35,727 nt of DNA from Clostridia bacterium. GTDB lineage: Bacteria > Bacillota > Clostridia > Oscillospirales > Acutalibacteraceae. Below, piece by piece: positions 1 through 32,612 of this stretch (position 1 is its first letter; every line of letters begins with the position of its first letter). The position numbers and the translations under genes are program-made. The notes below the pieces were generated by a model. That model did not search any database, was not told the DNA's origin, and saw only the letters and a list, made by a program, of their open reading frames with translations. The DNA lies in NCBI GenBank assembly GCA_017504645.1, contig JAFVQV010000009.1:1-35727 (forward strand), written 5' to 3'.

Positions 1-628
1 CGTTGCCGATGCCGGCGGCGTTGGCGTCGTCGGTGTCGATGTGCATTTCCAGGCGGAACGCCTTATTGACACGCACCTGCACGTCGTAGAAGGTGGTGCG
101 GCGCTCACCGTTTACCTCGACGGTGACATACTCCCCATCTTTCAGGCCGAAAGCGGCGCCCTCCTCCTCACTCATGTGAATGTGGCGGTTGGCGATGATA
201 CAGCCTTCCTTCAAGGTGACTACGCCTTTGGGACCCACAATGGTGATGGGGGCCGAGCCGGCGATATCCCCCGATTCGCGCACCGGAGACTTCACTTTCA
301 GCACAAAGGAGTCGGTGCGGGAGATCTCTACCTGGGAATTTTTACGGACAGGACCCAGCACACGCACGCCCTCAATGGGACGCAGAGAGGGGCCGATAAT
401 GGTGAGCTGCTCCTTACAGGCGTACTGACCAGGCTGGGACAGATCCTTTAAGGGGGTCAGCTGATAGCCCTTACCGAACAGCGTTTCCACGTGCTCGGCG
501 GTCAGGTGGATGTGACGATTGGACACGCCCACGGGCACCGTATTATCGGCGGCGGCAGCGGTGACCCCGCCGCACTGCGCCATGACGCGGCTGACGATTT
601 CAGAAACCAATGCGGCATCGTATGCCAT
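1..628 (-). CDS. pduL: Phosphate propanoyltransferase PduL (partial; C-terminus lies beyond the window start)
   Basis: Absent from the ORF track because it runs off the edge. Minus-strand ATG at 628-626 is preceded by AAGGAG (637-642). Translation MAYDAALVSEIVSRVMAQCGGVTAAAADNTVPVGVSNRHIHL...IIANRHIHM shows the two NRHIH repeats typical of PduL, plus an N-terminal amphipathic helix. Confidence 0.9.
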   Translation of the reverse strand, partial: MAYDAALVSEIVSRVMAQCGGVTAAAADNTVPVGVSNRHIHLTAEHVETLFGKGYQLTPLKDLSQPGQYACKEQLTIIGPSLRPIEGVRVLGPVRKNSQVEISRTDSFVLKVKSPVRESGDIAGSAPITIVGPKGVVTLKEGCIIANRHIHMSEEEGAAFGLKDGEYVTVEVNGERRTTFYDVQVRVNKAFRLEMHIDTDDANAAGIGN

Positions 629-642
629 GGTAAACACTCCTT

Positions 643-2085
643 TTAAATAATGCGGAAGCTGTCCGCCATCACGCAGCGGCGCTGACGGGTAAAGCTGCGG
701 GCAGAGGTGATACCCTCACCCGTGGGACCCGCAATGGTAAAGGTGGCGTGACCCTCGCCGCCAAAGCCGATGCCCGCGTAGGACGGGGCGTTTTTGACAA
801 AAATGGTGGTCTCCACCGCACGGGCAAAGCGGGACAGGTGGTCGATGTTCTTGGAATGCATGTGAGCGGTGTGGCGGTTACCGTGCTCCGCTTTCACCGC
901 CAAGTCAATGGCCTGATCGATGTTATCCACCCGCACGATGGGCAAAATGGGCATCATCAGCTCCTCCTGCACAAAGGGATGGTTGAAATCGGTCTCGCAG
1001 ATGATGCAGCGAATGTCCTTGCTGACCTTGACGCCGATCTTAGCCAACAGCACGTCAGCATCGCGGCCCACGCAATCGCGGTTGACGATCTTGCGGACGT
1101 TGCCTTTTTTATCGGTCTTTTCCACCAGCACAATCTGTGCCAGTTTATCGGCCTGCTGTGCGTCAATGAGGTAAGCGCCGTTTTTCAGCATGACGGAGAT
1201 CAGCTCGTCCGCGATGTTGCGGAATGCAAACACCTCTTTTTCCGCGATACAGGGCAGGTTATTATCAAAGGTGCAGCCGTCGATGATATCTTTACCCGCT
1301 TTGGCGATGTCGGCGGTATCGTCCACGATGACAGGGGGGTTGCCCGCGCCTGCACCGATGGCCTTCTTACCGGAGGACAGCACCGCCCGTACCACGCCGG
1401 GGCCGCCGGTGCATACCAGCAAACGGATCAGCGGATGAGATTGCATAATGGCGGCAGAATCCAAGGTGGGCTTTACCATGGAGCACACCAGCACGTCGGG
1501 GCCGCCCGCGGCTTTACAGGCGCGGTTGACCAGATCCACCGCGTAGTTGGAGGTGGCGATGGCGTTGGGATGGGGGTTAAACACCACACCGTTGCCCGCA
1601 GCGATCATGCCGATGCTGTTGCAGATAACGGTCTCGCTGGGGTTGGTGCTGGGGGTGATGGCACCCACCACGCCGAACGGAGCCATTTCCACCAAGGTCA
1701 GGCCGTTATCGCCCGTGCGGGCGTTGGATACGATATCCTCGGTGCCGGGAGTCTTATCCGCCACCAAAATGTGCTTCAGCCGCTTATGCTCCACGCGACC
1801 CATACCCGTTTCCGCGACGCCCAGTTGCGCCATGGTGGGCGCCTCTGCGCGGGTGAGACGGCGGATCTCGGTGATAATGGCTTCCCGCTGCTCCACCGAC
1901 ATGGCGCGTACCGCGCGATAGCCCGCATCGGCAGCCTTAATGGCCTCGTTCATATCGTCGTAAATACCGACGAATTTACGGGAGCCGTAATGGGTGCTAT
2001 CCCAATCAGCGGCGGCAGGTGCCTGCATTTTACCCAAAACCTGACTGACGACCTCGCGGATCTCAGCCTCGGACAGATTTGCCAT
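643..2085 (-). CDS. pduP: CoA-acylating (propion)aldehyde dehydrogenase, PduP/EutE family, with N-terminal encapsulation peptide
   Basis: 480 aa. Has the FDNNLPCIAEKE catalytic-Cys motif and an aldehyde dehydrogenase fold. N-terminus LSEAEIREVVSQVLGKM is followed by an Ala/Pro linker. RBS AAGGAGTG lies 6 nt upstream. Confidence 0.92.
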   Translation of the reverse strand: MANLSEAEIREVVSQVLGKMQAPAAADWDSTHYGSRKFVGIYDDMNEAIKAADAGYRAVRAMSVEQREAIITEIRRLTRAEAPTMAQLGVAETGMGRVEHKRLKHILVADKTPGTEDIVSNARTGDNGLTLVEMAPFGVVGAITPSTNPSETVICNSIGMIAAGNGVVFNPHPNAIATSNYAVDLVNRACKAAGGPDVLVCSMVKPTLDSAAIMQSHPLIRLLVCTGGPGVVRAVLSSGKKAIGAGAGNPPVIVDDTADIAKAGKDIIDGCTFDNNLPCIAEKEVFAFRNIADELISVMLKNGAYLIDAQQADKLAQIVLVEKTDKKGNVRKIVNRDCVGRDADVLLAKIGVKVSKDIRCIICETDFNHPFVQEELMMPILPIVRVDNIDQAIDLAVKAEHGNRHTAHMHSKNIDHLSRFARAVETTIFVKNAPSYAGIGFGGEGHATFTIAGPTGEGITSARSFTRQRRCVMADSFRII

Positions 2086-2104
2086 GGTAAGTCACTCCTT
2101 GTAC

Positions 2105-2863
2105 TTAGTAAACAAGCTCTACATTCTTATCTTTAAGATACTCCATCCAGCGTTCGGAAGGCGGGGCATCGGTGACGACGGTATCCATCTCGCCGATATC
2201 ACATACGCGGACGAAAGCAATGCGATCAAACTTCGTGCTGTCCACCGCCAACACCTTGCGCTGGGCGGCGGCAAAGATCGCCTGCTTGATCTCCGCTTCC
2301 TTTTCGTCGGAATCGGTGATGCCGGTGGTCATGTCGATGCCCTTGGAGGAGCACACCGCCAGATCCACGTGGAAATCGCGGATCATGCGTTCGGCGGAGG
2401 AGCCGATCAGCGACAGGGCGCCCTTTTTCAGCGAACCGCCGGTGGAAAGCACCCGCCAATCATCCTTATCTGCCAGTTCCAGTAAAATTTCCACGGAATT
2501 GGTGATGAGAGTGATATTTTTGAGATGTTTAATATATTTGGTTACGAAAATGGCGGTGGAGCTGGCATCCAGCATGATGTAATCCCCGTCGTGGATCATA
2601 TCCGCGATCTTTTCGGCGATATGCTGTTTCAGTTCCACATTGACGCGCTTACGCACGTGATAGGGCAGGTCGGTGTTCAAGCTTTTGTTGACGACCGCGC
2701 CGCCGTAGGTTTTTTTCGCCAAGCCCTCTTGATCCAGCTTTTCCAAGTCACGACGGATGGTCTCTTCCGTGACGTCAAATTCACGGCTAAGGTCCGAGAC
2801 AATGACCTTTCCCTCGGCAGACAGCCGAGCCAGGATCGCGTTGCGCCGTTCAATGGCGAGCAT
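2105..2863 (-). CDS. DeoR/GlpR-family transcriptional regulator
   Basis: 252 aa. N-terminal HTH ERRNAILARLSAEGKVIVSDLSREFDVTEETIRRDLEKL plus a C-terminal DeoR sugar-phosphate sensor domain. Co-directional, with gaps of only 14 and 19 nt to its neighbours. Confidence 0.9.
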   Translation of the reverse strand: MLAIERRNAILARLSAEGKVIVSDLSREFDVTEETIRRDLEKLDQEGLAKKTYGGAVVNKSLNTDLPYHVRKRVNVELKQHIAEKIADMIHDGDYIMLDASSTAIFVTKYIKHLKNITLITNSVEILLELADKDDWRVLSTGGSLKKGALSLIGSSAERMIRDFHVDLAVCSSKGIDMTTGITDSDEKEAEIKQAIFAAAQRKVLAVDSTKFDRIAFVRVCDIGEMDTVVTDAPPSERWMEYLKDKNVELVY

Positions 2864-2877
2864 ACAGTCACAACCTT

Positions 2878-3429
2878 TTACAGAATATTCTGCCAGAGTT
2901 TTTGGTCGGGGTGAGGAATGACCGCGCTGTCGAGGAACATGCCGTATTCGCCCGCACCTGTTTTGGCCTTATCAATGGCCGCCTGCACCGCGGCGATCTC
3001 GCCGGTGAGCAACAGGTAGGATTTTCCGCACATGCCGCGAGCCAAGCGCAGCTCAATGAGGTCTACCAGCGCGGTCTTAGCAGCGGTATCCGCCGCGACG
3101 ATGGCGGCAGAGGCGGAAAAGGTCTCCAGCACGCCCAAGGCGTTGGGAGAACCGATCTCTGAGGAACCGTACAACGCGCTGAAAATAGAATCGTGGGGGT
3201 TGCCCAGCACAAAGCTGTCGATCAGTTGTTCGGGATCTGCTACCGCAGCGGCTTCCACCGAAGCCTTGACAGCACTCAGGTCACCGCTGATCAGCACCAA
3301 AAATTTGCCGGGGCAAACGGTATCGGCCTGCAGTAGGTCTACCTCGGCGGTCTTGACCATGCGGTCAGCCGCCCGCATACCGGAGGAAACCGTTTTATAT
3401 TCCACCATACCGATGGCTTTTTTCATCAT
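2878..3429 (-). CDS. pduT: Tandem-BMC-domain shell protein (BMC-T), PduT-like
   Basis: 183 aa, alignable by eye over its full length to Salmonella PduT. The conserved TVCPGKF motif is present (Cys39 codon 3313-3315), matching the PduT 4Fe-4S pore ligand. RBS AGGAGG. Confidence 0.9.
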   Translation of the reverse strand: MMKKAIGMVEYKTVSSGMRAADRMVKTAEVDLLQADTVCPGKFLVLISGDLSAVKASVEAAAVADPEQLIDSFVLGNPHDSIFSALYGSSEIGSPNALGVLETFSASAAIVAADTAAKTALVDLIELRLARGMCGKSYLLLTGEIAAVQAAIDKAKTGAGEYGMFLDSAVIPHPDQKLWQNIL

Positions 3430-3441
3430 TCAGTTCCTCCT

Positions 3442-4767
3442 TTACTTCGTAATGGTGATGACACGGTCGGTCACATCGGATACCGTGCCGCTCATGGGAG
3501 CGTGGATGGCAACGCTCAGGGCGTTCTCCGCCGCGTGAGCAATAAGCTGACCCGCTTCTACCCGATCGCCCTTAGCCACGGCGGGGACCGCCGGTGCACC
3601 GATGTGCTGAGAAAGCAACACACGCAGGCGCTGAGGTTCGGGGATGGTATCACTGACGGGGGCCGATTTGTTATAGACGTCCAATCCCAGTCGGGAACGC
3701 AGACGGGACAGGGGGATCATGCGATAATCGCGGGCCCCATCCACGCCGCGCATAGGCGGATTGGCGGGGGGCTTGAGTCCGTGCTGACGCAGGCCGTTTT
3801 TGCAGTCGGTCAACAGCGAACGGGGTGACAAGCCTTGGCCGCAGGAATACAGCTCGCACAACCCGCAGGATGAACAGAACATGGCATTCACATACGGGGT
3901 GGCGTCGTTGGTGATACCGTTGGATGCCGCATACATAAAGGCGCTGGGGTCAATGGGATGTCCCAACAAATGACGGGGACACAGCGAGGTGCAGTAGCTG
4001 CACTGGCAGCAAGCCGCCATGGCGCGCTTCATATCCACCGTGGTTTTGCTGAGCTTTTTCTGCACCAACGGCAGGTTCTTGGGAAGGACCAGCACGGCGT
4101 TGGTGGTTTTGGTCACTACCTCGGCGGTAGAGCCGATGCGTCCCATCATGGGGCCGCCCAACACATAGGCGGGATCATCGATGGTGACACCGCCCGCCTG
4201 TTCCAGCAGCTGCGCCACGGTCATGCCCAACGGCGCATACACGGTGACGGGAGAAGCAACCTCGCCCGTGACGGTCACGTACTTATGGGTGACCGGCAAG
4301 CCCTGCATGGCACGGTAAATGTTATACACCGTTTCCACGTTAAGGACGGTGACTCCCACCGACAGCGGGATGGCACCGGCAGGAACCACGCGGCCGGTGG
4401 CCTGATAGGTCAGCACCACTTCGTCGCCGGCGGGGTATACCTCGGGCAGTTTACACAATTTCATATTTTCAAAGGAGTCCAGCTCCGCGGTGACGGCTTC
4501 CACGGTTCGTTTATACGAACCCTTGACGCCGATGTACACGGTCTTGGCTTCCACTGCTTTCGCAAGTAAATCCAGCGTGCTGAGGATCTCATGGGTATAC
4601 ATTTTCAGCACCTGGCGATGCAGACGGAGCAACGGCTCACATTCCGCACAGTTTAAAATCAGGGTATCGGCGCGTTTGTCCAGCTTGGCGTAGGTGGGAA
4701 ATCCCGCTCCGCCCGCGCCGACGATCCCGTAGTCGCGCAATAACGCTTTGAATTCTTCGATGTTCAT
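3442..4767 (-). CDS. pduS: PduS-like RnfC/NuoF-type flavin and Fe-S oxidoreductase
   Basis: 441 aa. N-terminus GIVGAGGAGFPTYAKL (RnfC/PduS nucleotide site). Two ferredoxin motifs, CCQCSYCTSLCP and CSSCGLCELYSC. ATGA overlap with the upstream BMC-P stop. Confidence 0.88.
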   Translation of the reverse strand: MNIEEFKALLRDYGIVGAGGAGFPTYAKLDKRADTLILNCAECEPLLRLHRQVLKMYTHEILSTLDLLAKAVEAKTVYIGVKGSYKRTVEAVTAELDSFENMKLCKLPEVYPAGDEVVLTYQATGRVVPAGAIPLSVGVTVLNVETVYNIYRAMQGLPVTHKYVTVTGEVASPVTVYAPLGMTVAQLLEQAGGVTIDDPAYVLGGPMMGRIGSTAEVVTKTTNAVLVLPKNLPLVQKKLSKTTVDMKRAMAACCQCSYCTSLCPRHLLGHPIDPSAFMYAASNGITNDATPYVNAMFCSSCGLCELYSCGQGLSPRSLLTDCKNGLRQHGLKPPANPPMRGVDGARDYRMIPLSRLRSRLGLDVYNKSAPVSDTIPEPQRLRVLLSQHIGAPAVPAVAKGDRVEAGQLIAHAAENALSVAIHAPMSGTVSDVTDRVITITK

Positions 4768-5045
4768 GAATGGATCACTCCGGCAAGTCCGGTACCGCTG
4801 TCAACAATGCCGACGATGGCCGCATCCACAGGGGAATCCGCCATACCGCAGCCGATACGGGCGGCACTTCCGGTGGCTACCAGTACGATCTCGCCGATAC
4901 CGGCACCCACATTGTCTACGGCGACGATCTTCGCGGAAGGATCGCCCAAATCGGCAATGGGCTCCACTACCATGAATTTACTGCCGATCAGATTTTCGTT
5001 TTTTCTTGTGGAAACAACGCTTCCCACAACTTTTCCGACGATCAT
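4764..5045 (-). CDS. pduN: BMC vertex pentamer protein (BMC-P; EutN/PduN/CcmL family)
   Basis: MIVGKVVGSVVSTRKNENLIGSKFMVVEP matches the EutN/CcmL N-terminus. The ORF track starts at GTG 5054. I prefer ATG 5045, which has AGGTGA 5 nt upstream and matches family N-termini. Confidence 0.88.
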   Translation of the reverse strand: MIVGKVVGSVVSTRKNENLIGSKFMVVEPIADLGDPSAKIVAVDNVGAGIGEIVLVATGSAARIGCGMADSPVDAAIVGIVDSGTGLAGVIHS

Positions 5046-5090
5046 CGTCTTCACCTGTTCTTTCGTGAGTTTTTTAAAGGGGCGTCAACT

Positions 5091-5117
5091 GCGGGGAGGC
5101 AGGGATTGCCTCCCCGC
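5091..5117 (-). other. Intercistronic GC-rich stem-loop between the last BMC-H gene and the BMC-P gene
   Basis: Perfect 10-bp stem, gcggggaggc (5091-5100) with gcctccccgc (5108-5117), and a 7-nt loop. No U-tract follows on the coding (minus) strand, so it is not a canonical intrinsic terminator. Confidence 0.6.
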
Positions 5118-5135
5118 TACGCTGACTTCATGCTC

Positions 5136-5414
5136 TTACTTCAACGTGGGAAGGATCTTCTCCACATCGTCGTGAGGACGCGGGATCACATGAGTAGCGA
5201 TCACTTCGCCCAGACGAGAAGCGGACGTAGAACCGGCTTCCACAGCGGATTTCACCGCGCCGACGTCACCGCGCACCATGACGGACACCAAACCGGAACC
5301 GATCTTCTCGGTGCCGATGAGCTGTACGTTGGCGGCTTTGACCATCGCGTCAGCGGCTTCGATGGCGGCGACCAGACCTCTGGTCTCGACCATGCCCAAT
5401 GCTTCCAATGCCAT
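5136..5414 (-). CDS. BMC-H hexamer shell protein (PduA/PduJ/EutM-like)
   Basis: 92 aa. [55 protein letters not shown] is a canonical Pfam00936-type sequence with a KIGSGL pore loop. RBS AGGAGGA. Confidence 0.93.
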
Positions 5415-5451
5415 TGTTGTTTCCTCCTTAGATTTTACTTAATTGATGAAC

Positions 5452-5730
5452 TTATTTCAGAGTGGGAAGGATCTTCTCCACATCGCCGTGGGGACGCGGG
5501 ATCACGTGAGTAGCGATCAGCTCGCCCAGACGGGACGCGGACGTAGAGCCGGCTTCCACAGCGGATTTCACCGCGCCGACGTCACCGCGCACCATGACGG
5601 ACACCAAACCGGAACCGATCTTCTCGGTGCCGATGAGCTGCACGTTGGCGGCTTTGACCATCGCGTCAGCGGCTTCGATGGCGGCGACCAGACCTCTGGT
5701 CTCAACCATGCCCAATGCTTCCAATGCCAT
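5452..5730 (-). CDS. BMC-H hexamer shell protein, near-identical paralog of 5136-5414 (alternative upstream start at 5805)
   Basis: The core differs from the neighbouring paralog at 2 residues. A strong AAGGAGGT sits 7 nt upstream of ATG 5730. The ORF track start at 5805 would add the 25 aa [25 protein letters not shown] and makes an ATGA overlap with the upstream gene. Confidence 0.85.
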
Positions 5731-5801
5731 TTTTCTTACCTCCTTTTCAGGTGCGGGTTTGACGGCCTCGGGGGCCGGAGTAACGGGAGTTTTTTCGTCT
5801 G

Positions 5802-6104
5802 TCATGACGGATTACCTGCCTTTTTCAGTATACGGGAGGCGCTGAGCTGAGCCATACGCACCGTTTCCTCGTGGGGACTGGCAATGACGGCGTGGGCGCA
5901 GGGTTTCACGATGCCACCCGCTACCGCGTTTTCTACGGCGGCGGTGACGGCGGAAATGTCACCCTGCACGATTACCGTGACCAAACGGCCACCCAGCTTT
6001 CGCTCCCATGTGACAAATTCCACGTCCGCGGATTTGCACATGATATCCAGACAATCGACGGCGCCGGTCACGCCGGACACCTCTATCAGTCCTAATGACT
6101 TCAT
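5802..6104 (-). CDS. Divergent BMC-H shell protein
   Basis: 100 aa. [30 protein letters not shown]...[18 protein letters not shown] has the BMC domain pattern, but the pore loop is KLGGRL instead of KIGSGL. A C-terminal tail is present. RBS AGGAG. Confidence 0.8.
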
Positions 6105-6120
6105 CCTCAGTAGCTCCTAC

Positions 6121-6396
6121 TTAGAATTTGGGAAGGATCTTCTCCACATCGTCGTGGGGACGGGGGATCACATGAACGGCGATCAGCTCGCCCAGACGAG
6201 AGGCGGTGTTGGAGCCGGCTTCCACAGCGGCTTTCACGGCGCCTACATCGCCGCGAACCATGACGGATACCAAGCCGGAGCCGATCTTTTCGGTGCCGAT
6301 CAGGGTGACCTCGGCGGCTTTGACCATGGAATCAGCGGCTTCGATGGCGGCGGTCAGGCCGCGGGTTTCGATCATACCGAGAGCTTCTTTTGACAT
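6121..6396 (-). CDS. BMC-H hexamer shell protein (PduA/PduJ-like)
   Basis: 91 aa. [64 protein letters not shown]. Confidence 0.93.
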
Positions 6397-6420
6397 TGGG
6401 GATTCCTCCTAAATATGTTT

Positions 6421-6735
6421 TTAATTTTTATCAAACGCGTTCAGCTTCAGCATGGGCTCCGTATCGGGCTCCGTGCTGGTAAGGATATGCGAGGTGACAA
6501 CGCCGGAGACCTGCTCCGCGGCCAGTTTTGCCGCTTCCACAGCGGCTTCCACATCCGCCACATTGCCGCGGAATTTTACCGCGACGATCAGCGGAACGGT
6601 GAGCTGGTCGGGGTTGCCGGGCTTGTTCTTGTCGAAGTTCTCCACGGTGACGTTGGCAGCCTTACAGCCCGCGTCACACGCGACGAACGCCGCAACCAAT
6701 CCGTATACCTCTACAATACCGGTGGCTTTTCCCAT
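6421..6735 (-). CDS. Atypical BMC-domain shell protein with enlarged pore loop
   Basis: 104 aa. GIVEVYGLVAAFVACDAGCKAANV...RGNVADVEAAVEAA keeps the BMC-H anchors, but the segment between ANV and RGNV is 26 aa, against 17 aa in the canonical paralogs. RBS GGGGAGAG. Confidence 0.75.
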   Translation of the reverse strand: MGKATGIVEVYGLVAAFVACDAGCKAANVTVENFDKNKPGNPDQLTVPLIVAVKFRGNVADVEAAVEAAKLAAEQVSGVVTSHILTSTEPDTEPMLKLNAFDKN

Positions 6736-6752
6736 GTATGTTCTCTCCCCGC

Positions 6753-7955
6753 TTATTTATTGACGATGGCGATCTTGAGGCCTTCCATCTTCAGGTTGAC
6801 CTGCAGCGCCTCGTTGATCTGTTCCAGCGGGAACTTATGGGTGATGAGTTTTTCCAGAGGCAAGCCGATGCCCTTGGCACGCTTGAGGAAATCAAAGGTG
6901 GTGGCGTAATCACGCAGGGTGTATACCCACGAGCCCACGGTGGTGATCTCCTTGGAGCAGATGTCGAAGTGGGGGTTGATGGTGGCATCGCCGCCGTTGA
7001 TGAAGAAGCCCAGCTCGCACAAGCCGCCACCGTTGCGGATGAATTTGTAAATGTTGCTGTGGGCCACAGGGGAGCCGGTGCACTGGAACGCGAAGTCCGC
7101 CAAATAGCCGCCGAAGGCGTTCTCTACGGCACCCGTCAGTGCTTCGATGCCCTTGTGATCCTTGAAGTTGACCACCTGAGTAGCACCCATCTGACGTGCG
7201 AATTCCAGGCGCTTGGCCTCGCCGTCCACGGCAACGATATTCTCGATGCCCATGGTGCGCAGGATGGCGATGCAGATCAGACCGATGGGGCCGCAGCCCT
7301 GTACCACCACGCGGCTGTTAAACCGCAGGATACCGGTGGTCTTGGCACGCTCGACCGCGTGAATGAGCACCGCGCAGGGCTCGATCAGGATGCGGGAATC
7401 CAGATCCAGATCGCTGACGTTGAACACCGTGGAGCCGCCGCGTACCAAAATGTAATCGCTGAACCAGCCGTTCAGGTGCACATCGTCGTCCGGCAGCAGA
7501 CCGTATACGTCCGCGCCACCCACGTTCTGCTTATTCAAGTCGAACATGGTGATGTCGGGGTTATCCTTGAAGATCATGCAGGTAACCACCTTATCGCCGA
7601 TGGCGAGGGGCTTGCCTGCGCTGTCTTTTTTCACATTTTTACCCATTTTGACGATCTCGCCCGTGCCCTCGTGACCCAGTGCCACGGGGATCAGGCCGAA
7701 GGGATCGCGCTTAAACTCATGCGCGTCGGTACCGCACACGCCGCAGCCCTCCACCTTGACCAGGATATCGTCATCGCCCACTGTCGGCATGGGATATTCT
7801 TTAATTTCGAATTTCTCCAGTGCCGTCAGCATGGCTACATGGGCGGTAGAAGGAACATTGCGGCTGCCACCGGAGGCCGCCGGAGCAGCGGTGCCCTTCA
7901 TGCCGTCCAGTACTTGCCGGACGATCTCTTCAATGTTGGAAGAGTTGATTTCCAT
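6753..7955 (-). CDS. Zinc-dependent medium-chain alcohol dehydrogenase with N-terminal encapsulation peptide
   Basis: 400 aa. Has GCGVCGTD and GHEGTGEIV Zn-ligand motifs and a GCGPIG Rossmann motif. An N-terminal extension SSNIEEIVRQVLDGM plus Ala/Pro/Gly linker precedes the catalytic domain. TAATG overlap with the upstream gene. Confidence 0.9.
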   Translation of the reverse strand: MEINSSNIEEIVRQVLDGMKGTAAPAASGGSRNVPSTAHVAMLTALEKFEIKEYPMPTVGDDDILVKVEGCGVCGTDAHEFKRDPFGLIPVALGHEGTGEIVKMGKNVKKDSAGKPLAIGDKVVTCMIFKDNPDITMFDLNKQNVGGADVYGLLPDDDVHLNGWFSDYILVRGGSTVFNVSDLDLDSRILIEPCAVLIHAVERAKTTGILRFNSRVVVQGCGPIGLICIAILRTMGIENIVAVDGEAKRLEFARQMGATQVVNFKDHKGIEALTGAVENAFGGYLADFAFQCTGSPVAHSNIYKFIRNGGGLCELGFFINGGDATINPHFDICSKEITTVGSWVYTLRDYATTFDFLKRAKGIGLPLEKLITHKFPLEQINEALQVNLKMEGLKIAIVNK

Positions 7956-8437
7956 TACTGTATTCCGCCTTTCTCAAAGAGTTGTTTGCCATATGCCGCC
8001 AGAGCCGTGTCCTGCTCCTCACTGCCGCCGCTGACGCCCAGTCCGCCGACGATGTTGCCGGCTGCGTCGCACAGGGGCTCTCCCCCGCCGAAGATCACGA
8101 TGTGACCCTCGTTGGTGAACTGGATCCCGTACAAGGATCCGCCCGGCTGTGCCAACGGTTTCAGCTGTGAGGTAGACATTTTTAAGGATACGACGGTGAA
8201 CGCCTTTTGCAGTGCCACATCGTAGCTGGCGATGTAGGAATCGTCCATGCATTCTACCAGCACGGGGCGTGCCGCCCGATTGGAGACCGCTACCACTGCG
8301 TTGACGCCCATCTGCGCGGCTTTTTGCCGCACCTGCTCACTCAGTGCGCGAGCCTGCTCCAGCGTGATGTCACGAGGCGCAGCGGTCACTTGGCGGGCAA
8401 TGGTGTCTACCAAAGAACGCAAGGTGTGTTCGTCCAT
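7955..8437 (-). CDS. GlcG/DUF336 (PduO C-terminal-domain-like, putative haem-binding) protein with N-terminal amphipathic helix
   Basis: 160 aa. MGVNAVVAVSN...ALQKAFTVVSL...GGGEPL...GGLGVSGGSEEQD follows the DUF336 pattern. N-terminus is EHTLRSLVDTIARQV. RBS AGGTGA. Confidence 0.78.
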   Translation of the reverse strand: MDEHTLRSLVDTIARQVTAAPRDITLEQARALSEQVRQKAAQMGVNAVVAVSNRAARPVLVECMDDSYIASYDVALQKAFTVVSLKMSTSQLKPLAQPGGSLYGIQFTNEGHIVIFGGGEPLCDAAGNIVGGLGVSGGSEEQDTALAAYGKQLFEKGGIQ

Positions 8438-8449
8438 GCCGTCACCTGC

Positions 8450-9244
8450 TTATTTGTTCAACTGTTCCAGCACGCGGCGGGTGATCTCACCCACGAGATC
8501 GCTGTCATTGCTGTTGCAGGTGCAGTTGCCGCCGCAGCCGTGGCAGCTGGGTTTGCCCTCTTTGGCGTTGGGGCACAGGTCGGCGGGATGCTTACCCTTC
8601 ATGCCGAACTGACGGCGAATCTCATACAGGCGCTTGACCTGAGCGTCGGACAGCTCCTTGGGACCGCCCAGCTGCTTGGAGATGTACAGCAGGCGAGCGT
8701 AGAATTCCACCGATTCCATCTTGTGGTAGGCGCTCAGCAGGCTGTCAGAGAAGGACAGAGCACCGTGGTTTTCCAGCAGCACTGCGTCAAAGGACTGCAG
8801 ATACTTGGAAACGGCGTCCGGAATTTCCTCGGTAGAGGGGGTGCCGTATTCGGCGATCGGCACACAGCCCAGGGCGATGACCGCTTCGGGCATGATGGGC
8901 TGGGTCAGCGGAATGCCGGCGATGGCAAAACCGGTGGCGTACAGCGGGTGAGCGTGCACCACGGCGTTGACGTCGGGGCGCTCCTTATACACGCGCATGT
9001 GCATCTTGATTTCGGAGGAGGGCTTGAAGCCGGGGTTGGCCTGAATGACCTTGCCGTCGCGGTCCACCTTGCAGATAAACTCGGGCGTCATGAAGCCCTT
9101 GCTGACACCGGTGGGGGTGCAGAGGAATTCATTGTCGCTGATCTTGACGGAAATGTTGCCGTCGTTGGAGGCGACCATGCCCTTGTCATAAATGCGCTTG
9201 CCGATGTCGCATATTTGCTTTTTAATTTCGTACTCGTTTGCCAT
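8450..9244 (-). CDS. Class II aldolase (L-fuculose-/L-rhamnulose-1-phosphate aldolase family) with Cys-rich linker and C-terminal encapsulation peptide
   Basis: 264 aa. FucA-like core: GNISV, KPSSE (catalytic Glu), VVHAHP and ENHG (Zn His ligands). The C-terminus carries CPNAKEGKPSCHGCGGNCTC followed by DLVGEITRRVLEQLNK. RBS AAGGAG. Confidence 0.9.
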   Translation of the reverse strand: MANEYEIKKQICDIGKRIYDKGMVASNDGNISVKISDNEFLCTPTGVSKGFMTPEFICKVDRDGKVIQANPGFKPSSEIKMHMRVYKERPDVNAVVHAHPLYATGFAIAGIPLTQPIMPEAVIALGCVPIAEYGTPSTEEIPDAVSKYLQSFDAVLLENHGALSFSDSLLSAYHKMESVEFYARLLYISKQLGGPKELSDAQVKRLYEIRRQFGMKGKHPADLCPNAKEGKPSCHGCGGNCTCNSNDSDLVGEITRRVLEQLNK

Positions 9245-9306
9245 AGTGCTTACTCCTTTTTTGATTTACTTTGGATTTTCTTTGATTTTGAGAACCTCAC
9301 AGGCTC

Positions 9307-9335
9307 ATAGTACCACATAAATTCGCAAAAGTCAA
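9307..9335 (-). promoter_or_regulatory. Candidate internal sigma-70-type promoter upstream of the aldolase gene
   Basis: Minus strand reads TTGACT (9335-9330), a 17-nt spacer, then TGgTACTAT (extended -10; hexamer 9312-9307). It lies in the 102-nt gap after the pduV-like stop. Confidence 0.5.
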
Positions 9336-9346
9336 CATAAAAACCT

Positions 9347-9805
9347 TTATTTTTCTTTGTTTTGTACGATTTTTGTTGGTTTTTTGTTGTTTTGCAGGTG
9401 CTCCAGCACCGCGGGGACGCCTTCGCCGGTCAGTGAGTTGACGGCGAACACCCTTTGGCAGCCGGACAGCCGCAGCCATCGCTCGGCGCGGCGAGGGTCA
9501 GCTTTGTCGATCTTTGTCACGATACCGATGACCTCACGGTTCACCATGCAGGTGATGCAGGGCGGAAACAGGGAGTAATCGTCGTCGGCAGCGATGAGCA
9601 ATGCCACCACGTCCGCCTCGTAGGAATACAGGCACAGCGCCGCTCCCAGATCGTGATTTTCGGCGTATTCGCCGGGGGAGTCGATGAGGAAATCCTCGAA
9701 TACCATGCCTTGGGTCTTTTGATAGTGGACTGTGTCTCCGCGCAGCGCCTGCTTCAGTGAAGTTTTACCGGCGCCGCTGCGACCGATGAGTAACAGCTTT
9801 TTCAT
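9347..9805 (-). CDS. pduV: EutP/PduV-family small GTPase
   Basis: 152 aa. P-loop GRSGAGKTSL, with size and pattern typical of EutP/PduV. ATGA overlap with the upstream pduU-like stop. Confidence 0.88.
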   Translation of the reverse strand: MKKLLLIGRSGAGKTSLKQALRGDTVHYQKTQGMVFEDFLIDSPGEYAENHDLGAALCLYSYEADVVALLIAADDDYSLFPPCITCMVNREVIGIVTKIDKADPRRAERWLRLSGCQRVFAVNSLTGEGVPAVLEHLQNNKKPTKIVQNKEK

Positions 9806-10176
9806 GTGCGGGTCAGCTCGCAGACGTCGAAGCCCAGCTTCTTAACGGCGTATTCTGTGACCGCCGCCAGTGCCGCTTCCACCTGAGAGACCGATCCGGT
9901 GACGATCACCGTGCCGCTGAAGCGATCCACAAAGCCCAAGGTGACGCCGGAGGCTTTTAGTGCGATATCGCCGGCGATGATCGCCGTTTCGCTGGGGCTT
10001 AGGGTGAGAATACCGATGGCACCCGAATGAGCCTCGGCAGGGTCTAACCCTAACTTGTAGTACAGCACGTCGTCCGGATTGGCGATGATGTGCGCCAAGG
10101 TGATCTGCTTACCGGGAACGATCTCCTGTATGATGCGGGCTTTCTCGCCGTTTACGGGGAATCCGTCAAATGCCAT
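9802..10176 (-). CDS. pduU: Circularly permuted BMC shell protein, PduU/EutS-like
   Basis: 124 aa. ARIIQEIVPGKQITLAHIIANP closely matches the PduU/EutS N-terminal signature. RBS AGGAGG. Confidence 0.88.
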   Translation of the reverse strand: MAFDGFPVNGEKARIIQEIVPGKQITLAHIIANPDDVLYYKLGLDPAEAHSGAIGILTLSPSETAIIAGDIALKASGVTLGFVDRFSGTVIVTGSVSQVEAALAAVTEYAVKKLGFDVCELTRT

Positions 10177-10180
10177 CCTG

Positions 10181-10972
10181 TCAACCTCCTATCTGTACGG
10201 TCAGACCGTACCGCTGTGCCGTAAGCATCAGGCGGTTCATGTGCTCCGCGGTAGGCGGCGGCACATCGCCCATGGGATAGGGACGATCCAGGCCTTCGTA
10301 TTTATCCCGCCCCATGCGATGATAGGGCAGTAGGTGTATCTCGTTTACGTTGGGAAGCGACGCGGTGAAGGCGGCGATGGCGCCGATCTCCTCCTCCGTG
10401 TCGTTAAAGCCGGGGATCACCGGCACCCGAACGATCAGCTTGTTGGCTTTTTCCGCGATGAGGCGGGCGTTTTGCAAGATCTTCTCGTTGGGCTTGGTGG
10501 TGAACTCGGCGTGTTTGCGGCTGTCCATGTGCTTGATGTCCATCAGCACCGTGTCCAGATGGGGCAAAAACCGTTCGACCACAGCGGCATCCGCGAAACC
10601 GGTAGTCTCGATGGCAGTGTTGACACCGTTTTCGTGACAGGCGGTGAGCAGTGCCACCGCGAAGTCCGGCTGCAGCAGCGATTCGCCGCCGGATAAGGTC
10701 ACCCCGCCGCCGGAACGGCGGTAGTAGGGTCGGTCACGCAGGATCTCCTGCAGCACCTCCCCCACCGTCACATCCCGACCGACGGTCTTGACTGTACCCG
10801 CCTGCTTCATCTGTTGGATGTCGTAGGACTGAGATTCGGGATTACAGCACCAGCGGCACCGCAGGGCACAGCCTTTGAGAAACACAATGGTGCGGATGCC
10901 GGGGCCGTCGTGGGTGGAGAACCGCTGGATGTCAAAGATGCGTCCCGTGACCGAGAGCAATGCGTTATCCAT
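10181..10972 (-). CDS. Glycyl-radical enzyme activating enzyme (radical SAM)
   Basis: 263 aa. DGPGIRTIVFLKGCALRCRWCCNPES carries the CX3CX2C motif, and a GGE SAM motif (LSGGESLLQ) is present. No further Cys cluster motifs are visible. TGATG overlap with the GRE stop. Confidence 0.93.
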   Translation of the reverse strand: MDNALLSVTGRIFDIQRFSTHDGPGIRTIVFLKGCALRCRWCCNPESQSYDIQQMKQAGTVKTVGRDVTVGEVLQEILRDRPYYRRSGGGVTLSGGESLLQPDFAVALLTACHENGVNTAIETTGFADAAVVERFLPHLDTVLMDIKHMDSRKHAEFTTKPNEKILQNARLIAEKANKLIVRVPVIPGFNDTEEEIGAIAAFTASLPNVNEIHLLPYHRMGRDKYEGLDRPYPMGDVPPPTAEHMNRLMLTAQRYGLTVQIGG

Positions 10973-13500
10973 CAGAATCCTCCCTGCTCCGTGCGGTTGA
11001 TAATGTCATCCTGCAAGGAACGGGACAGGGTGGTGAACAGAGCACTGTAGCCTGCCACACGCACTACCAGCGAGCGGTATTTGTCAGGATTCTTCTGGGC
11101 GTCTCGCAGCGTTTCACGACTGACCACGTTGAATTGCATGTGACTGCCCTTCTGGTCAAAGTAGCCGCGCACCAGTGCTACGAAGCTTTCCAGACCGCCG
11201 GCACCTGCCAGCGCACTGGGATGGAATTTCATGTTGAACAGCGTACCGTTGGACGCAATGTAGTGGTCCAGACGGGAAACGGAGTTGGCCGCCGCCGTAG
11301 GGCCCTTGATGTCACGGCCTGCCGCCGGCGACACGCCGTCCGCCACGGGGGTGTTGGCCAGTCGCCCGTCGGGGGTGGCACCCGTCTGGGCGCCCAACGG
11401 AACATTGGCGGAAACGGGGTACAGTCCCGCTTGGAACTGTCCGCCGCGGGGATTGCGGTAGTGTAAGAGAGGACGGGTATAGGTATACGCCACGTCGCGG
11501 GCAAACTCGTCCACCTCGGGCAGATCGTTGCCGAACTTGGGCAGGGCAGCGATGCGATCCAGCAGTTGCTGGTACTGCGCCTTTTGTGCGTCACTGCAGG
11601 GATTTTTCGCTACCGTTTCGTAGATGGTCTTGACATCGGCGGCGGTCAGGGTCTTGCCGTTTTCCACCAGCTGACGTGCCACCTGTGCGGTAAGCGCTTC
11701 CGCCTGCTTGGCATCCATATCCTTGCCGTAGTTATGTTCCAGCGCTTCTTTCCACTCGCCCAGCGACACGCTGTGTTGCTCGAACACCAGCGTCTTGATC
11801 GCGTACAGCGCGTCCGCCATGTTGGCGATACCAAAGCCCTGAGGACCGGTGAAGTTGTAGACGGCGCCGCCCTCTTGTAGGCTCTTGCCTCTGCCGATGC
11901 AATCCTCCACCATGCAGGACAGGAACGGAAGGGGGCAACGATCGGCATGGGCCTGGTCGATGGCGTTGTCGGCGTTGACCATCAGCTCGATAAAGTAGTT
12001 CATCTGCGCCTTGTAGGCGTCGTAGAATTCGTCAAAGGTGGTCATCTTGGCCACGTCGCCCGTTTGGGGACCGACCTGCACGCCGTTATCCACACCGTTT
12101 GAGAATACCAGCTCCAGCGGACGGCACATGTTGAAGAACGCCGCATCGTGCCAGCCGTCGGTCTTACCGCTCTTTTGCGGCTCCACGCAACCGATGATGT
12201 TGTAGTCGCGAGCATCCTCCAGCGTCAGGCCGCGGCTTTGCAGGGCGGGGATAATAACCTCGTCGTTGTAGTAGGCAGGCAAGCCGATGCCGGTGCGGGT
12301 GATTTCCGCCGCCCGCAGCATGAACTCGTGGGGCGTGCCGTTCCACACACGAACCGAGAAGGACGGCTGGGGCAACAACACATGGAGGGTAGCGTTCATG
12401 CACATATAGGACATGTCGTTGGTGACGTCACAGCCACCCGCATCCTGTCCGCCCACGATGAGGTTCTGAAACAGGCTGTAGCCGGCAAAGCCCTCGGCAG
12501 AGGCGGCGTCGCGCACCTTGTTCAGGCTGTTGAGCTTGACCCAGATGCAATCCACCAGCTCCTGAGCAAATTCGCGGGTGATGGCACCCTTATCCAAGTC
12601 CGCCTTATAATAAGGATACATATATTGGTCGAAACGGCCGGGAGAAATGGAGTGACCGCTGGATTCGGTTTGAATGAGCAGTTGCACGAACCAGAAGGAT
12701 TGGCACGCTTCGTAGAATGAGGTGGCACCCTGCGCAGGCACGCGGTCGCAGTTGGCGGCAATGCGCAACAGTTCGGCTTTGCGAGTGTCGTCGCCGCAGG
12801 CGGCAGCTTCCTCCCGCGCCAGTGCAGCATAGCGGGCGGCAAAGCGGCAAGCAGCCTCACAGCTGATGAGCACCGCTTCCAGGAATTGGTGGCGGCGGGC
12901 GTAATCCTCGTCGGATACCCGCAGCTTTGCCAGAGCGGCTTTTGCCTCGGCGGCGATACCCTTGAAGCCCACACGCAGCACCTTGCCGTAGTCCACGGTC
13001 ACGTGACCGATGCCGTTGTAGAAGTAGTTACCGGGGGTGAAAATATTATGCTCCATGGCGGTCAGAGTCTCGGGTGCCATGTAAGCCGTTGCCAGTTCGC
13101 TGGTGGTCTTGCCCTTCCAGTAGGGATACACCTTGCGCAGCGCGTCCTTGGTCTCCTCCGATATGTAGAACGGGTCGGCACTGCGGGTGGCCACCGTATC
13201 GAATTCGTCCTCCAGCCAGCTGTAGGAATATTCGGGGAAGGTCTGACAGCTGCGGGGGCTCTTGGTATTGCCGCCTACGATCAGCTCCAGCGGACGGATG
13301 CTGATGGGCAGCTTCTCCAAAATGTGCGCGAACGCCTTGGCGCGGCGCAGCACAATAGGCTGACCCTCCGTTTCGCGGTAGGATTCCGTCAGCAGGACGG
13401 CACGGTCCGCCTCGATCTCCGGCTTGTTCTCGAACAGCTGGTCAATGAGCGCGGGAATGCGTGCGCTTTTTTCAATGTTAGCAGTGTATGCAGTAGCCAT
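10972..13500 (-). CDS. Glycyl radical enzyme, B12-independent diol (1,2-propanediol) dehydratase-like
   Basis: 842 aa from ATG 13500, with GGAGGG 7 nt upstream; the ORF track start at 13530 adds 10 aa with no RBS. Glycyl radical motif VVRVAGYSALF (Gly codon 11050-11052). Thiyl loop IIGCVEP (Cys 12187-12189, Glu 12181-12183) is typical of the dehydratase/lyase GRE class. The substrate is assigned from the aldolase and rha gene context, not from active-site analysis. Confidence 0.9.
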   Translation of the reverse strand: MATAYTANIEKSARIPALIDQLFENKPEIEADRAVLLTESYRETEGQPIVLRRAKAFAHILEKLPISIRPLELIVGGNTKSPRSCQTFPEYSYSWLEDEFDTVATRSADPFYISEETKDALRKVYPYWKGKTTSELATAYMAPETLTAMEHNIFTPGNYFYNGIGHVTVDYGKVLRVGFKGIAAEAKAALAKLRVSDEDYARRHQFLEAVLISCEAACRFAARYAALAREEAAACGDDTRKAELLRIAANCDRVPAQGATSFYEACQSFWFVQLLIQTESSGHSISPGRFDQYMYPYYKADLDKGAITREFAQELVDCIWVKLNSLNKVRDAASAEGFAGYSLFQNLIVGGQDAGGCDVTNDMSYMCMNATLHVLLPQPSFSVRVWNGTPHEFMLRAAEITRTGIGLPAYYNDEVIIPALQSRGLTLEDARDYNIIGCVEPQKSGKTDGWHDAAFFNMCRPLELVFSNGVDNGVQVGPQTGDVAKMTTFDEFYDAYKAQMNYFIELMVNADNAIDQAHADRCPLPFLSCMVEDCIGRGKSLQEGGAVYNFTGPQGFGIANMADALYAIKTLVFEQHSVSLGEWKEALEHNYGKDMDAKQAEALTAQVARQLVENGKTLTAADVKTIYETVAKNPCSDAQKAQYQQLLDRIAALPKFGNDLPEVDEFARDVAYTYTRPLLHYRNPRGGQFQAGLYPVSANVPLGAQTGATPDGRLANTPVADGVSPAAGRDIKGPTAAANSVSRLDHYIASNGTLFNMKFHPSALAGAGGLESFVALVRGYFDQKGSHMQFNVVSRETLRDAQKNPDKYRSLVVRVAGYSALFTTLSRSLQDDIINRTEQGGF

Positions 13501-13551
13501 ATAAGATCCCTCCGAGGGTAATATGATCATAGGGGATAGGTTTCTATGCTC

Positions 13552-13580
13552 ATTCTATCTTAAAACCACATCTTTGTCAA
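13552..13580 (-). promoter_or_regulatory. Candidate sigma-70-type promoter of the microcompartment operon
   Basis: Minus strand reads TTGACA (13580-13575), a 17-nt spacer, then TAGAAT (13557-13552). This leaves a leader of about 45 nt to ATG 13500. An A/T-rich tract lies upstream. Confidence 0.6.
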
Positions 13581-17681: not shown

Positions 17682-17703
17682 ACGGTACAACTCCTTAATA
17701 TAT

Positions 17704-32579: not shown

Positions 32580-32612
32580 GGGTGTATATGTCATTTGGAA
32601 AGGAAGTTGGGC

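Follow-up and report, generated by a model that had tools for sequence, protein, structure and literature searches.

A predicted GRM5-class microcompartment locus for conversion of rhamnose or fucose to propionate in an uncultured Acutalibacteraceae-like gut Clostridium

Gene content of the locus

The window, i.e., the whole analysed stretch of 35,727 nt, carries 18 co-directional genes on the minus strand, running from position 13530 to position 1; all features given below lie on this strand. The gene families named in the initial annotation were recovered by Pfam, and the maximum gap between genes was 102 nt, as stated there. Of the six start/stop overlaps it had counted, four are solid, namely those between the glycyl radical enzyme (GRE) and its activating enzyme (AE), PduU and PduV, DUF336 and ADH, and BMC-P and PduS. 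Seven genes with PF00936 and one with PF03319 are clustered with enzyme genes, which identifies a bacterial microcompartment (BMC) locus. In GC content, the cluster (0.54-0.61) agrees with its flanks and, therefore, there is no sign of recent horizontal transfer, which was rejected. A search of the whole window with Rfam at the gathering threshold revealed no riboswitch or other RNA family.

The shell gene set consists of five single-domain BMC-H genes, one gene of the PduU/EutS type, one tandem-BMC gene of the PduT type and one BMC-P gene. The circularly permuted PduU/EutS-type protein (9802..10176, 124 aa) matched EutS (4AXI, 122 bits) and PduU (3CGI, 111 bits), and the Cys-Pro-Gln motif of GrpU was looked for in it and not found. 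Two of the BMC-H proteins are divergent, one with a pore loop insertion of ~9 residues (6421..6735, 104 aa) and the other with the pore motif KLGGRL (5802..6104, 100 aa). The remaining three are PduA/PduJ-like (6121..6396, 91 aa; 5452..5730, probably 92 aa; 5136..5414, 92 aa), the last being a near-duplicate of the one preceding it. The open reading frame of the 5452..5730 gene extends to 5805, corresponding to 117 aa; since its internal ATG at 5730 is preceded at 7 nt by the strong ribosome binding site (RBS) AAGGAGG, and 92 aa are called elsewhere, the ATGA overlap of the longer frame is probably spurious. The set is completed by a BMC-P pentamer protein of the EutN/CcmL family (4764..5045; Pfam) and a PduT-type tandem-domain BMC-T protein (2878..3429, 139 bits) with a conserved VCPGK cysteine. 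Of the hexamers in the shell, three would be PduA-like, two divergent and one of the PduU/EutS type; a PduT-type FeS trimer and a pentamer would complete it.

Among the cargo and accessory genes, the class II aldolase of the fuculose/rhamnulose-1-phosphate type (8450..9244; PF00596, 171 bits) has a conserved C-terminal Cys/His-rich linker, CPN-x7-SCHGC-x3-C-x-C, followed by an equally conserved terminal amphipathic helix resembling an encapsulation peptide (EP). EP-like helices are located at the N-terminus of the DUF336/HbpS-like protein of the PduO C-terminal domain family (7955..8437), of the CoA-acylating aldehyde dehydrogenase (AldDH) of the PduP/EutE type (643..2085; PF00171; NF011927, 677 bits against a cut-off of 403), of the PduL phosphotransacylase (1..628; PF06130) and of the Zn-dependent ADH (6753..7955; ADH_N and ADH_zinc_N, PF08240 and PF00107), where the helix MEINSSNIEEIVRQVLDGM precedes an Ala/Ser/Pro linker. 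In all five proteins, the amphipathic terminus is conserved and the linker variable. PduL, starting at 628, is the final cluster gene in related contigs and is cut by the window edge ~6 codons ahead of its stop. An exact-sequence look-up of the ADH returned no identical record, and two near-identical proteins exist (P0003 and P0004). The cluster further encodes a PduV/EutP-family small GTPase (9347..9805; PF10662, 150 bits), a PduS-type flavin/FeS oxidoreductase (3442..4767; Complex1_51K, SLBB, 2x[4Fe-4S] and RnfC_N) and a DeoR-family regulator (2105..2863), which is embedded with gaps of 14 nt and 19 nt to its neighbours.

Outside the cluster, rhaA (L-rhamnose isomerase, 16431-17720) and rhaB (rhamnulokinase, 17704-19101), both scoring above the equivalog cut-off, are located 3 kb upstream with their own promoter (16431..19101). 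In a related locus (L002), rhaA is adjacent as well, in an independent arrangement. No fucose isomerase or fuculokinase was found in the window.

Class assignment and comparison with known systems

The GRE, a predicted 1,2-propanediol dehydratase (10972..13500; PFL-like, PF02901, 830.7 bits; Gly_radical, PF01228, 121.2 bits), is encoded next to its activating radical-SAM enzyme (10181..10972, 263 aa; PF04055, 71.9 bits), and a GRE with its cognate radical-SAM activase in the locus defines a glycyl radical enzyme microcompartment (GRM) (PMC6325248). The GRE frame is open to 13530; the start is most likely the ATG at 13500 with the RBS GGAGGG, giving 842 aa, the length that related contigs also show. 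Both motifs reported previously were found, RVAGY containing G817 and GCVEP containing C438 and E440. The top PDB match was the characterised Roseburia inulinivorans diol dehydratase (RiDD, 5I2A), aligned over the full length with 1251 bits and 64.9% identity across 833 aligned residues; glycerol dehydratase reached 1054 bits and the CutC entries ~505 bits. Pairwise matches, pocket residues and equivalog cut-offs place the enzyme in the 1,2-propanediol dehydratase group of GRM5, which is marked by an internal insertion of ~60 aa and by the lack of an N-terminal extension. The activase carries the CX3CX2C motif and no ferredoxin-like insertion, as evident from the absence of Cys between that motif and residue 100 and from Pfam giving only Radical_SAM and Fer4_12; the ~70-aa insertion is missing only from GRM5 activases (PMC6325248).

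The other constituents point to the same class. Besides the class II aldolase, the locus encodes a Zn-type ADH, which is the GRM5 "lactaldehyde reductase" (PMC6325248), and the metabolosome core of acylating AldDH and PduL. DeoR and DUF336, both assigned by Pfam, are among the GRM5 ancillary genes (PMC4207490) and, with PduS and PduT, form the standard set (PMC4207490; PMC6325248). The locus encodes homologues of PduS and PduT and none of GrpU, a pattern seen in 57/57 GRM5 loci (PMC6325248). Judged from sequence, the locus is very likely a GRM5-class microcompartment locus, predicted to convert rhamnose or fucose to propionate, of an uncultured gut Acutalibacteraceae-like Clostridium. The initial annotation had proposed a fucose/rhamnose-type organelle of this kind and a probably known locus class; every test that was run agrees, including the match of the GRE to RiDD and the adjacent rhaA and rhaB, and the gene content matches catalogued GRM5.

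A comparison was made with the GRM5 loci of C. (Lachnoclostridium) phytofermentans and R. inulinivorans, for which published descriptions were used, and with a genome collection, which was scanned with the aldolase as query. The C. phytofermentans locus Cphy_1174-1187 likewise contains the GRE, activase, PduU-like protein, class II aldolase, AldDH, Zn-ADH, PduL, BMC-P, PduS, PduT and DeoR, a PduA-like and two divergent BMC-H, and a 5' block GRE-AE-PduU...aldolase as well as a P-S-T-DeoR block (PMC3557285). It differs in that AldDH and PduL flank the ADH and BMC-H genes, whereas they are located 3' of DeoR here; in that DeoR is a separate transcription unit, whereas it is co-oriented and tightly embedded here; and in its three single-domain BMC-H genes as opposed to five, with PduV and DUF336 being extra here (PMC3557285). 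The hosts also differ, being a high-GC member of the Oscillospirales here and a low-GC member of the Lachnospiraceae there. From R. inulinivorans, the locus differs in gene order, the Roseburia accession order suggesting that GRE and AE come after DeoR (PMC3557285).

Gene order, regulator, DUF336 protein and odd shell paralogs had been put forward as possible marks of an uncharacterised variant. The latter three are all canonical GRM5 accessories (PMC4207490, PMC6325248, PMC3557285), the BMC-H set of C. phytofermentans itself comprising two divergent proteins and one that is PduA-like (PMC3557285). The gene order does differ from the two characterised loci, but is common in public genomes: uncultured Acutalibacteraceae and related Clostridia have the same 18-gene order, with AldDH-PduL behind DeoR, in at least 22 species-representative genomes, implying that the locus is under selection. 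We conclude that it is an intact representative of the GRM5 cluster type, which had been catalogued before, that it is ordinary except for the gene order and some regulatory details, and that it leaves the understanding of the GRM5 system unchanged.

Among other microcompartments, GRM3 of Rhodopseudomonas palustris BisB18 shares a GRE diol dehydratase with internal EP and the AldDH and PduL core chemistry (PMC5311937). In contrast to the present locus, with its aldolase, Zn-ADH and insertion-free activase, GRM3 lacks an aldolase and a Zn-ADH lactaldehyde reductase, its activase has a ferredoxin-like insertion, and its GRE is only ~52% identical to RiDD (PMC6325248; PMC5311937). The B12-dependent PDU system of Salmonella shares the sequence propionaldehyde to propionyl-CoA to propionyl-phosphate, homologues of PduA/J, U, T, N, S, V, L and P, and similar EP sequences; its dehydratase, however, is the B12-dependent PduCDE, whereas a glycyl radical enzyme and no B12 recycling genes are encoded here, and the upstream sugar-phosphate steps are predicted to be encapsulated here, unlike in PDU. 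GRM5 organelles convert deoxy-sugars of plant cell wall and host mucus to propionate without vitamin B12. Beyond the Lachnospiraceae, the pathway is widely distributed among uncultured Oscillospirales of high GC content from human and ruminant guts, and knowing this helps to predict propionate producers from metagenomes.

Promoters, intra-cluster hairpin and a modular reading

The cluster has two conserved promoters and, thus, is not a single-promoter operon. P1 (TTGACA-17-TAGAAT, 13552..13580), matching the consensus at 11/12 positions, precedes the GRE start by 51 nt, lies downstream of the rpsT terminator, and has a counterpart in 53/54 related loci. The internal promoter P2 (TTGACT-17-TACTAT with a TG extension, 9307..9335) lies in the AT-rich 102-nt gap ahead of the aldolase and was found in 66/70 related loci; it also heads aldolase loci devoid of a GRE. 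No significant RNA structure was detected in this PduV-aldolase gap (z = 0.38), so that a structured RNA element was rejected and the gap is regarded as promoter region. An element of the TGTGGTTTT type is common to both promoter regions, TGTGGTTTT itself being located in the P1 spacer at 13562-13570. Over the whole window, it had 11 matches against 6.5 expected, which is no significant enrichment; its significance derives only from position and cross-species enrichment. The embedded DeoR protein presumably regulates the cluster via P1 and P2.

A GC-rich RNA hairpin (5084..5126) with an 11-bp perfect core stem (5091-5117), folding at -36.2 kcal/mol (z = -4.8), was identified in the gap that separates the last BMC-H gene from BMC-P. 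A hairpin of unrelated sequence is present at the same position in about 50/53 related loci. As with gene families, catalytic motifs and synteny, the conservation of promoters and hairpin can be read directly from the DNA.

A speculative reading of these features, doubtful when all its parts are taken jointly, is that two modules were grafted together in the Acutalibacteraceae-type GRM5 and that its expression is controlled in layers. One module, a GRE-activase-PduU-PduV cassette led by P1, would have been joined to an autonomous, "PVM-like" organelle led by P2 and composed of aldolase, DUF336, shell, PduS and PduT; the P2-led module occurs alone in sister genomes. The embedded DeoR would control both promoters through a common operator array of the TGTGGTTTT / AAAACAAAGAAAAA type, the position-conserved hairpin that follows the final BMC-H gene would fix the stoichiometry of hexamers to pentamers and of the cargo, and the Cys/His cluster of the aldolase linker may bind a metal or FeS centre, linking the entry enzyme with the redox relay of PduS and PduT. 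The second promoter, the shared promoter motif, the hairpin and the Cys-rich linker are small testable leads on microcompartment stoichiometry and regulation.

Proposed pathway and alternative readings

In the proposed pathway, cytosolic RhaA and RhaB would yield L-rhamnulose-1-phosphate, with L-fuculose-1-phosphate as an alternative substrate, and the class II aldolase within the shell would cleave the sugar-1-phosphate to DHAP and L-lactaldehyde. The latter would be reduced with NADH to (S)-1,2-propanediol by the Zn-ADH, predicted to be a lactaldehyde reductase and/or propanol dehydrogenase; as the one ADH in the cluster, it would have to act in the former role and possibly in the latter, too. 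Petit et al. allotted these two roles differently (PMC3557285). The GRE, switched on by its radical-SAM partner, would convert (S)-1,2-propanediol to propionaldehyde, from which the acylating AldDH would form propionyl-CoA, regenerating NADH. PduL would then recycle CoA by forming propionyl-phosphate, which would exit the shell for ATP formation; no propionate or acetate kinase was found in the cluster. PduS and PduT are likely to provide electrons or pass them on; like those of DUF336 and PduV, their roles are predictions. The earlier proposal had placed all steps inside the shell. The pathway as such is supported, with its substrate being predicted, and the shell location is suggested by the EP-like termini.

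Alternatively, exogenous 1,2-propanediol obtained by cross-feeding, as in GRM3 or PDU, could be the main substrate, and the aldolase could be cytosolic or accessory. GRM3 has the same core of GRE, AldDH and PduL (PMC5311937), and P1 drives GRE-AE-PduU-PduV apart from the aldolase-led unit, so that either module could be used without the other. This is rather unlikely as the principal use, given that the aldolase retains its conserved C-terminal EP-like helix and is syntenic in all related loci, that rhaAB is adjacent, and that the aldolase-signature GRM5 model is backed by the induction of the C. phytofermentans locus by fucose/rhamnose (PMC3557285). Use of exogenous 1,2-propanediol and use of rhamnose or fucose by the organelle are compatible and not mutually exclusive.

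PVM and PVM-like organelles also have DeoR, and fuculose/rhamnulose-1-phosphate enters them through a class II aldolase bearing an encapsulation peptide at its C-terminus (PMC4207490), but they lack GRE and activase, their core enzymes taking lactaldehyde directly. By analogy, ADH and AldDH could disproportionate lactaldehyde to 1,2-propanediol and lactyl-CoA, the GRE being a dispensable add-on; indeed, aldolases 89-93% identical to the present one (L005, L017, L019) are found at the head of loci that lack a GRE and share P2, DUF336, shell, PduS, PduT and PduL with it. Here, however, an intact GRE and activase are encoded behind a conserved promoter of their own, with synteny maintained in most relatives, and the GRE route closes the redox balance neatly, making this reading improbable.

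Even less probable is a glycerol dehydratase function of the GRE, with 3-hydroxypropionaldehyde as the aldehyde processed in the compartment. The GRE is 60.9% identical to the C. butyricum enzyme, only ~4 identity points less than to RiDD, with every catalytic residue in common, and the C. butyricum enzyme turns over 1,2-propanediol as well (PMC3557285). At positions where the two references differ, however, it agrees with RiDD at 138 and with glycerol dehydratase at 78. The GRE shares with RiDD (5I2A/5I2G), in identical numbering, G817, C438, E440, H166, F344 and V696, and further pocket residues in common are H283, S284, D452, A453 and Y694. At three discriminating sites, F344, A453 and V696 agree with RiDD, whereas glycerol dehydratase has Y339, S448 and S642; on the basis of our own alignment, we take these sites to be the probable determinants of diol versus glycerol use. 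The GRE also shares with RiDD an internal, BMC-type insertion of ~55 aa (residues 594-650), a predicted intramolecular encapsulation peptide, which is absent from glycerol dehydratase, and its context is aldolase and rhaAB with zero glycerol genes.

A choline-TMA lyase (GRM1/GRM2) or other non-diol GRE compartment, which the initial annotation had named among the cases that would overturn it and to which only the generic GCVEP and RVAGY common to all eliminase GREs would point, is effectively refuted by the sequence, as the GRE exceeds only the generic TIGR01774 cut-off, falls below the equivalog cut-offs for CutC (TIGR04394, 581 bits against 1050), HypD and the sulfonate lyases HpfG and HpsG, has no N-terminal CutC-type extension and has RiDD as best match.

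Gene content and the signature enzyme

ORF listing and translation placed the cluster on the minus strand, with transcription running from about position 13580 to 1 in the order GRE, radical-SAM activase, a 124-aa BMC protein, PduV/EutP, class II aldolase, a DUF336/HbpS-like protein and Zn-ADH, followed by five single-domain BMC-H proteins, BMC-P, PduS, a tandem-domain BMC protein, DeoR, aldehyde dehydrogenase (AldDH) and PduL. Each family named in the initial annotation was matched by Pfam scans, the GRE scoring 830.7 bits for the PFL-like domain and 121.2 bits for Gly_radical. Sequence searches of the PDB revealed the 124-aa BMC protein to be of the EutS/PduU type and the tandem-domain BMC protein, which keeps the VCPGK cysteine, to be of the PduT type. 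The GRE probably starts at 13500, which gives 842 aa and agrees with the gene calls on related contigs. The 117-aa BMC-H ORF contains an internal ATG preceded by a strong AAGGAGG ribosome-binding site; its product is most likely 92 aa long and a near-copy of that of the neighbouring gene. Instead of the six start/stop overlaps described initially, four solid ones were found. The pduL gene is truncated at the window edge; in a related genome, PduL is the final cluster gene and is followed by a convergent rhaA. Window position 1 and the end of an ENA metagenome contig (L001) both fall within the last codons of pduL, suggesting that assemblies are halted just downstream by a repeat or a strain-variable junction.

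The top PDB match of the GRE was the biochemically characterised Roseburia inulinivorans diol dehydratase (RiDD; 1251 bits, full length), followed by C. butyricum glycerol dehydratase (1054 bits), with CutC entries at ~505 bits. Global alignment gave identities of 64.9% to RiDD and 60.9% to glycerol dehydratase, and G817, C438, E440, H166, H283, S284, D452 and Y694 were common to all three enzymes. At the three pocket positions discriminating RiDD from glycerol dehydratase, the window GRE carries the RiDD-like residues F344, A453 and V696 (Y339, S448 and S642 in glycerol dehydratase). A ~55-residue insertion, absent from glycerol dehydratase, is also present; published work on BMC-associated diol dehydratases reads it as an intramolecular encapsulation peptide (PMC6325248; PMC5311937). 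Among the NCBIfam models, the GRE passed solely the generic PFL2/glycerol-dehydratase subfamily cut-off, scoring below the CutC, HypD, HpfG and HpsG equivalog cut-offs. From the RiDD-like pocket and insertion and the four failed cut-offs, we conclude that the enzyme does not cluster with CutC or another non-diol clade; the diol-type assignment made at the outset therefore stands.

Assignment to GRM5 and distribution of the arrangement

GRM5, the catalogued fucose/rhamnose type, is defined by a GRE with its activase, a class II aldolase and a PF00107/PF08240 alcohol dehydrogenase; PduS and PduT occur in 57 of 57 surveyed loci, GrpU is absent, the activase is the only one among the types without a ferredoxin-like insertion, and DeoR and DUF336 are ancillary genes (PMC6325248; PMC4207490). 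The window shows every one of these features. The fucose/rhamnose-type GRM locus recognised initially is thus real and belongs to a catalogued class. The one PduA-like and two divergent BMC-H genes of the C. phytofermentans locus (PMC3557285) are matched by the PduA-like trio and the 104-aa and 100-aa divergent paralogues of the window. Since the regulator and DUF336 are listed for GRM5 and the odd shell paralogues are matched in C. phytofermentans, all of them are canonical and not, as had been proposed, marks of an uncharacterised variant.

Compared with the two characterised loci, AldDH and PduL are shifted behind DeoR to the 3' end, and a PduV gene and extra BMC-H copies are present. The gene order, also put forward as a mark of a variant, is indeed unlike that of these two loci, but a tblastn synteny map revealed the exact 18-gene order in 22 fully covered representative genomes. 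Both contigs fetched by protein identity also carry it, and many more loci, cut by contig ends, fit it. A few loci (L071, L083) retain a C. phytofermentans-like order and thereby link the two arrangements. The window arrangement is common in public genomes. For the ADH, more than 7,000 database homologues were found at E ≤ 1e-30, the best 120 all being at least 89% identical, and querying species-representative genomes with the aldolase gave at least 575 relatives, the best 80 of which all derived from uncultured Acutalibacteraceae, Oscillospiraceae or Clostridia MAGs of human or ruminant guts. The window was 98.4% identical to L001; because the nearest species representative was only ~80% identical, its species is probably absent from the representative genomes. 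As a clean, complete example of a catalogued microcompartment, the locus represents an uncultured gut lineage and offers a few regulatory details that can be tested.

Compact loci without a GRE were observed in L005 (10001-16695), L017 and L019, with aldolases 89-93% identical to that of the window. They comprise aldolase, DUF336, BMC-H, BMC-P, PduS, PduT, acetate kinase, PduL and an AraC regulator, and suggest that the GRE cassette was recently gained or lost within this bacterial family. In the loci compared, DUF336 always accompanied the aldolase rather than the GRE.

Promoters, shared motif and intergenic hairpin

Upstream of the cluster and co-oriented with it is rpsT, whose strong terminator is followed by a near-consensus promoter, P1 (TTGACA-17-TAGAAT; 13580-13552, minus strand), ahead of the GRE gene. 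A sigma-A-type promoter, P2 (TTGACT-17-TGgTACTAT; 9335-9307, minus strand), is situated in the AT-rich 102-nt gap directly upstream of the aldolase gene. P1 was kept in 53 of 54 loci and P2 in 66 of 70, where the PduV-aldolase gaps of the related loci (L001-L083) have 20-33% GC and the consensus TTGACT-17-TG-n-TAYTAT. Because each is conserved, the cluster has at least two promoters. P2 marks the boundary between the GRE module and the aldolase-shell module, and in sister genomes the aldolase loci that lack a GRE are headed by a promoter of the P2 type.

The motif TGT[GT]G[GT]TTT occurred 52 times in 54 P1 regions (background 0.014 copies per 200 nt), a ~70-fold enrichment upstream of the GRE, and its reverse complement 91 times in 70 P2 regions (background 0.033 copies per 200 nt), a ~40-fold enrichment upstream of the aldolase, where it co-occurs with AAAACAAAGAAAAA-like repeats. 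The motif is thus oppositely oriented at P1 and P2, and the P2 array extends partly into the 3' end of pduV. Only two exact copies are present in the window, both at P1 (13562-13570 and 13636-13644, minus strand); a further site lies at 9385-9393 (plus strand). The motif is a candidate shared operator, through which the embedded DeoR protein possibly acts.

A very stable GC-rich hairpin was predicted in the gap that separates the final BMC-H gene from the BMC-P gene (5084-5126, minus strand; -36.2 kcal/mol, z = -4.8). In about 50 of 53 related loci this intergenic position is likewise occupied by a strong hairpin, unrelated in sequence and with no consistent U tract. An Rfam search over the window gave no match. 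The hairpin may serve as an attenuator within the cluster or stabilise an mRNA 3' end; by attenuating or stabilising transcripts, it could set shell stoichiometry, with which the C. phytofermentans expression gradient is compatible (PMC3557285).

Predicted pathway and cargo

L-rhamnose isomerase and rhamnulokinase genes, both passing their NCBIfam equivalog cut-offs, are found 3 kb further upstream under their own extended -10 promoter, past the sporulation genes gpr and spoIIP; neither fucI nor fucK was found within the window. The sporulation genes and the GC content of ~58% suggest a high-GC Clostridia lineage. The published GRM5 pathway is the best-supported model. Accordingly modelled, RhaA and RhaB would form L-rhamnulose-1-phosphate in the cytosol, which the aldolase would cleave to L-lactaldehyde and DHAP. 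The ADH would reduce lactaldehyde with NADH, the GRE would dehydrate 1,2-propanediol, AldDH would oxidise propionaldehyde with NAD+ and CoA, and PduL would recycle CoA. By inference, NADH would be balanced in the lumen by the ADH and AldDH steps.

Cargo encapsulation is predicted from sequence features. Amphipathic helices, each leading into a variable Ala/Ser/Pro-rich linker, are conserved at the N-termini of ADH, AldDH, PduL and DUF336. The ADH peptide MEINSSNIEEIVRQVLDGM is very similar to the Salmonella PduD peptide. The aldolase has a comparable helix at its C-terminus, as is known for BMC aldolases (PMC4594438). Since a 2015 survey limited encapsulation peptides to signature and core enzymes, the DUF336 helix (residues 1-20; gene at 7955-8437, minus strand), with its variable linker like those of ADH, AldDH and PduL, would be a small addition to the known carriers.

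The linker that joins the aldolase core to the C-terminal encapsulation helix carries the Cys/His motif CPN-x7-SCHGC-x3-C-x-C (8450-8590, minus strand; residues ~219-264), no description of which was found in the literature searched. All 80 related loci keep CPN-x7-SCHxC-x2-4-C, and Cx2Cx2C-like Cys clusters recur in linkers of distant BMC-type aldolases; the motif may form a metal or FeS site.

Elsewhere in the window, a gene for the beta subunit of a Na+-translocating oxaloacetate/methylmalonyl-CoA decarboxylase (32595-33782, plus strand) adjoins polysaccharide biosynthesis genes and could be relevant to an additional propionate route, of the succinate type, in the organism.
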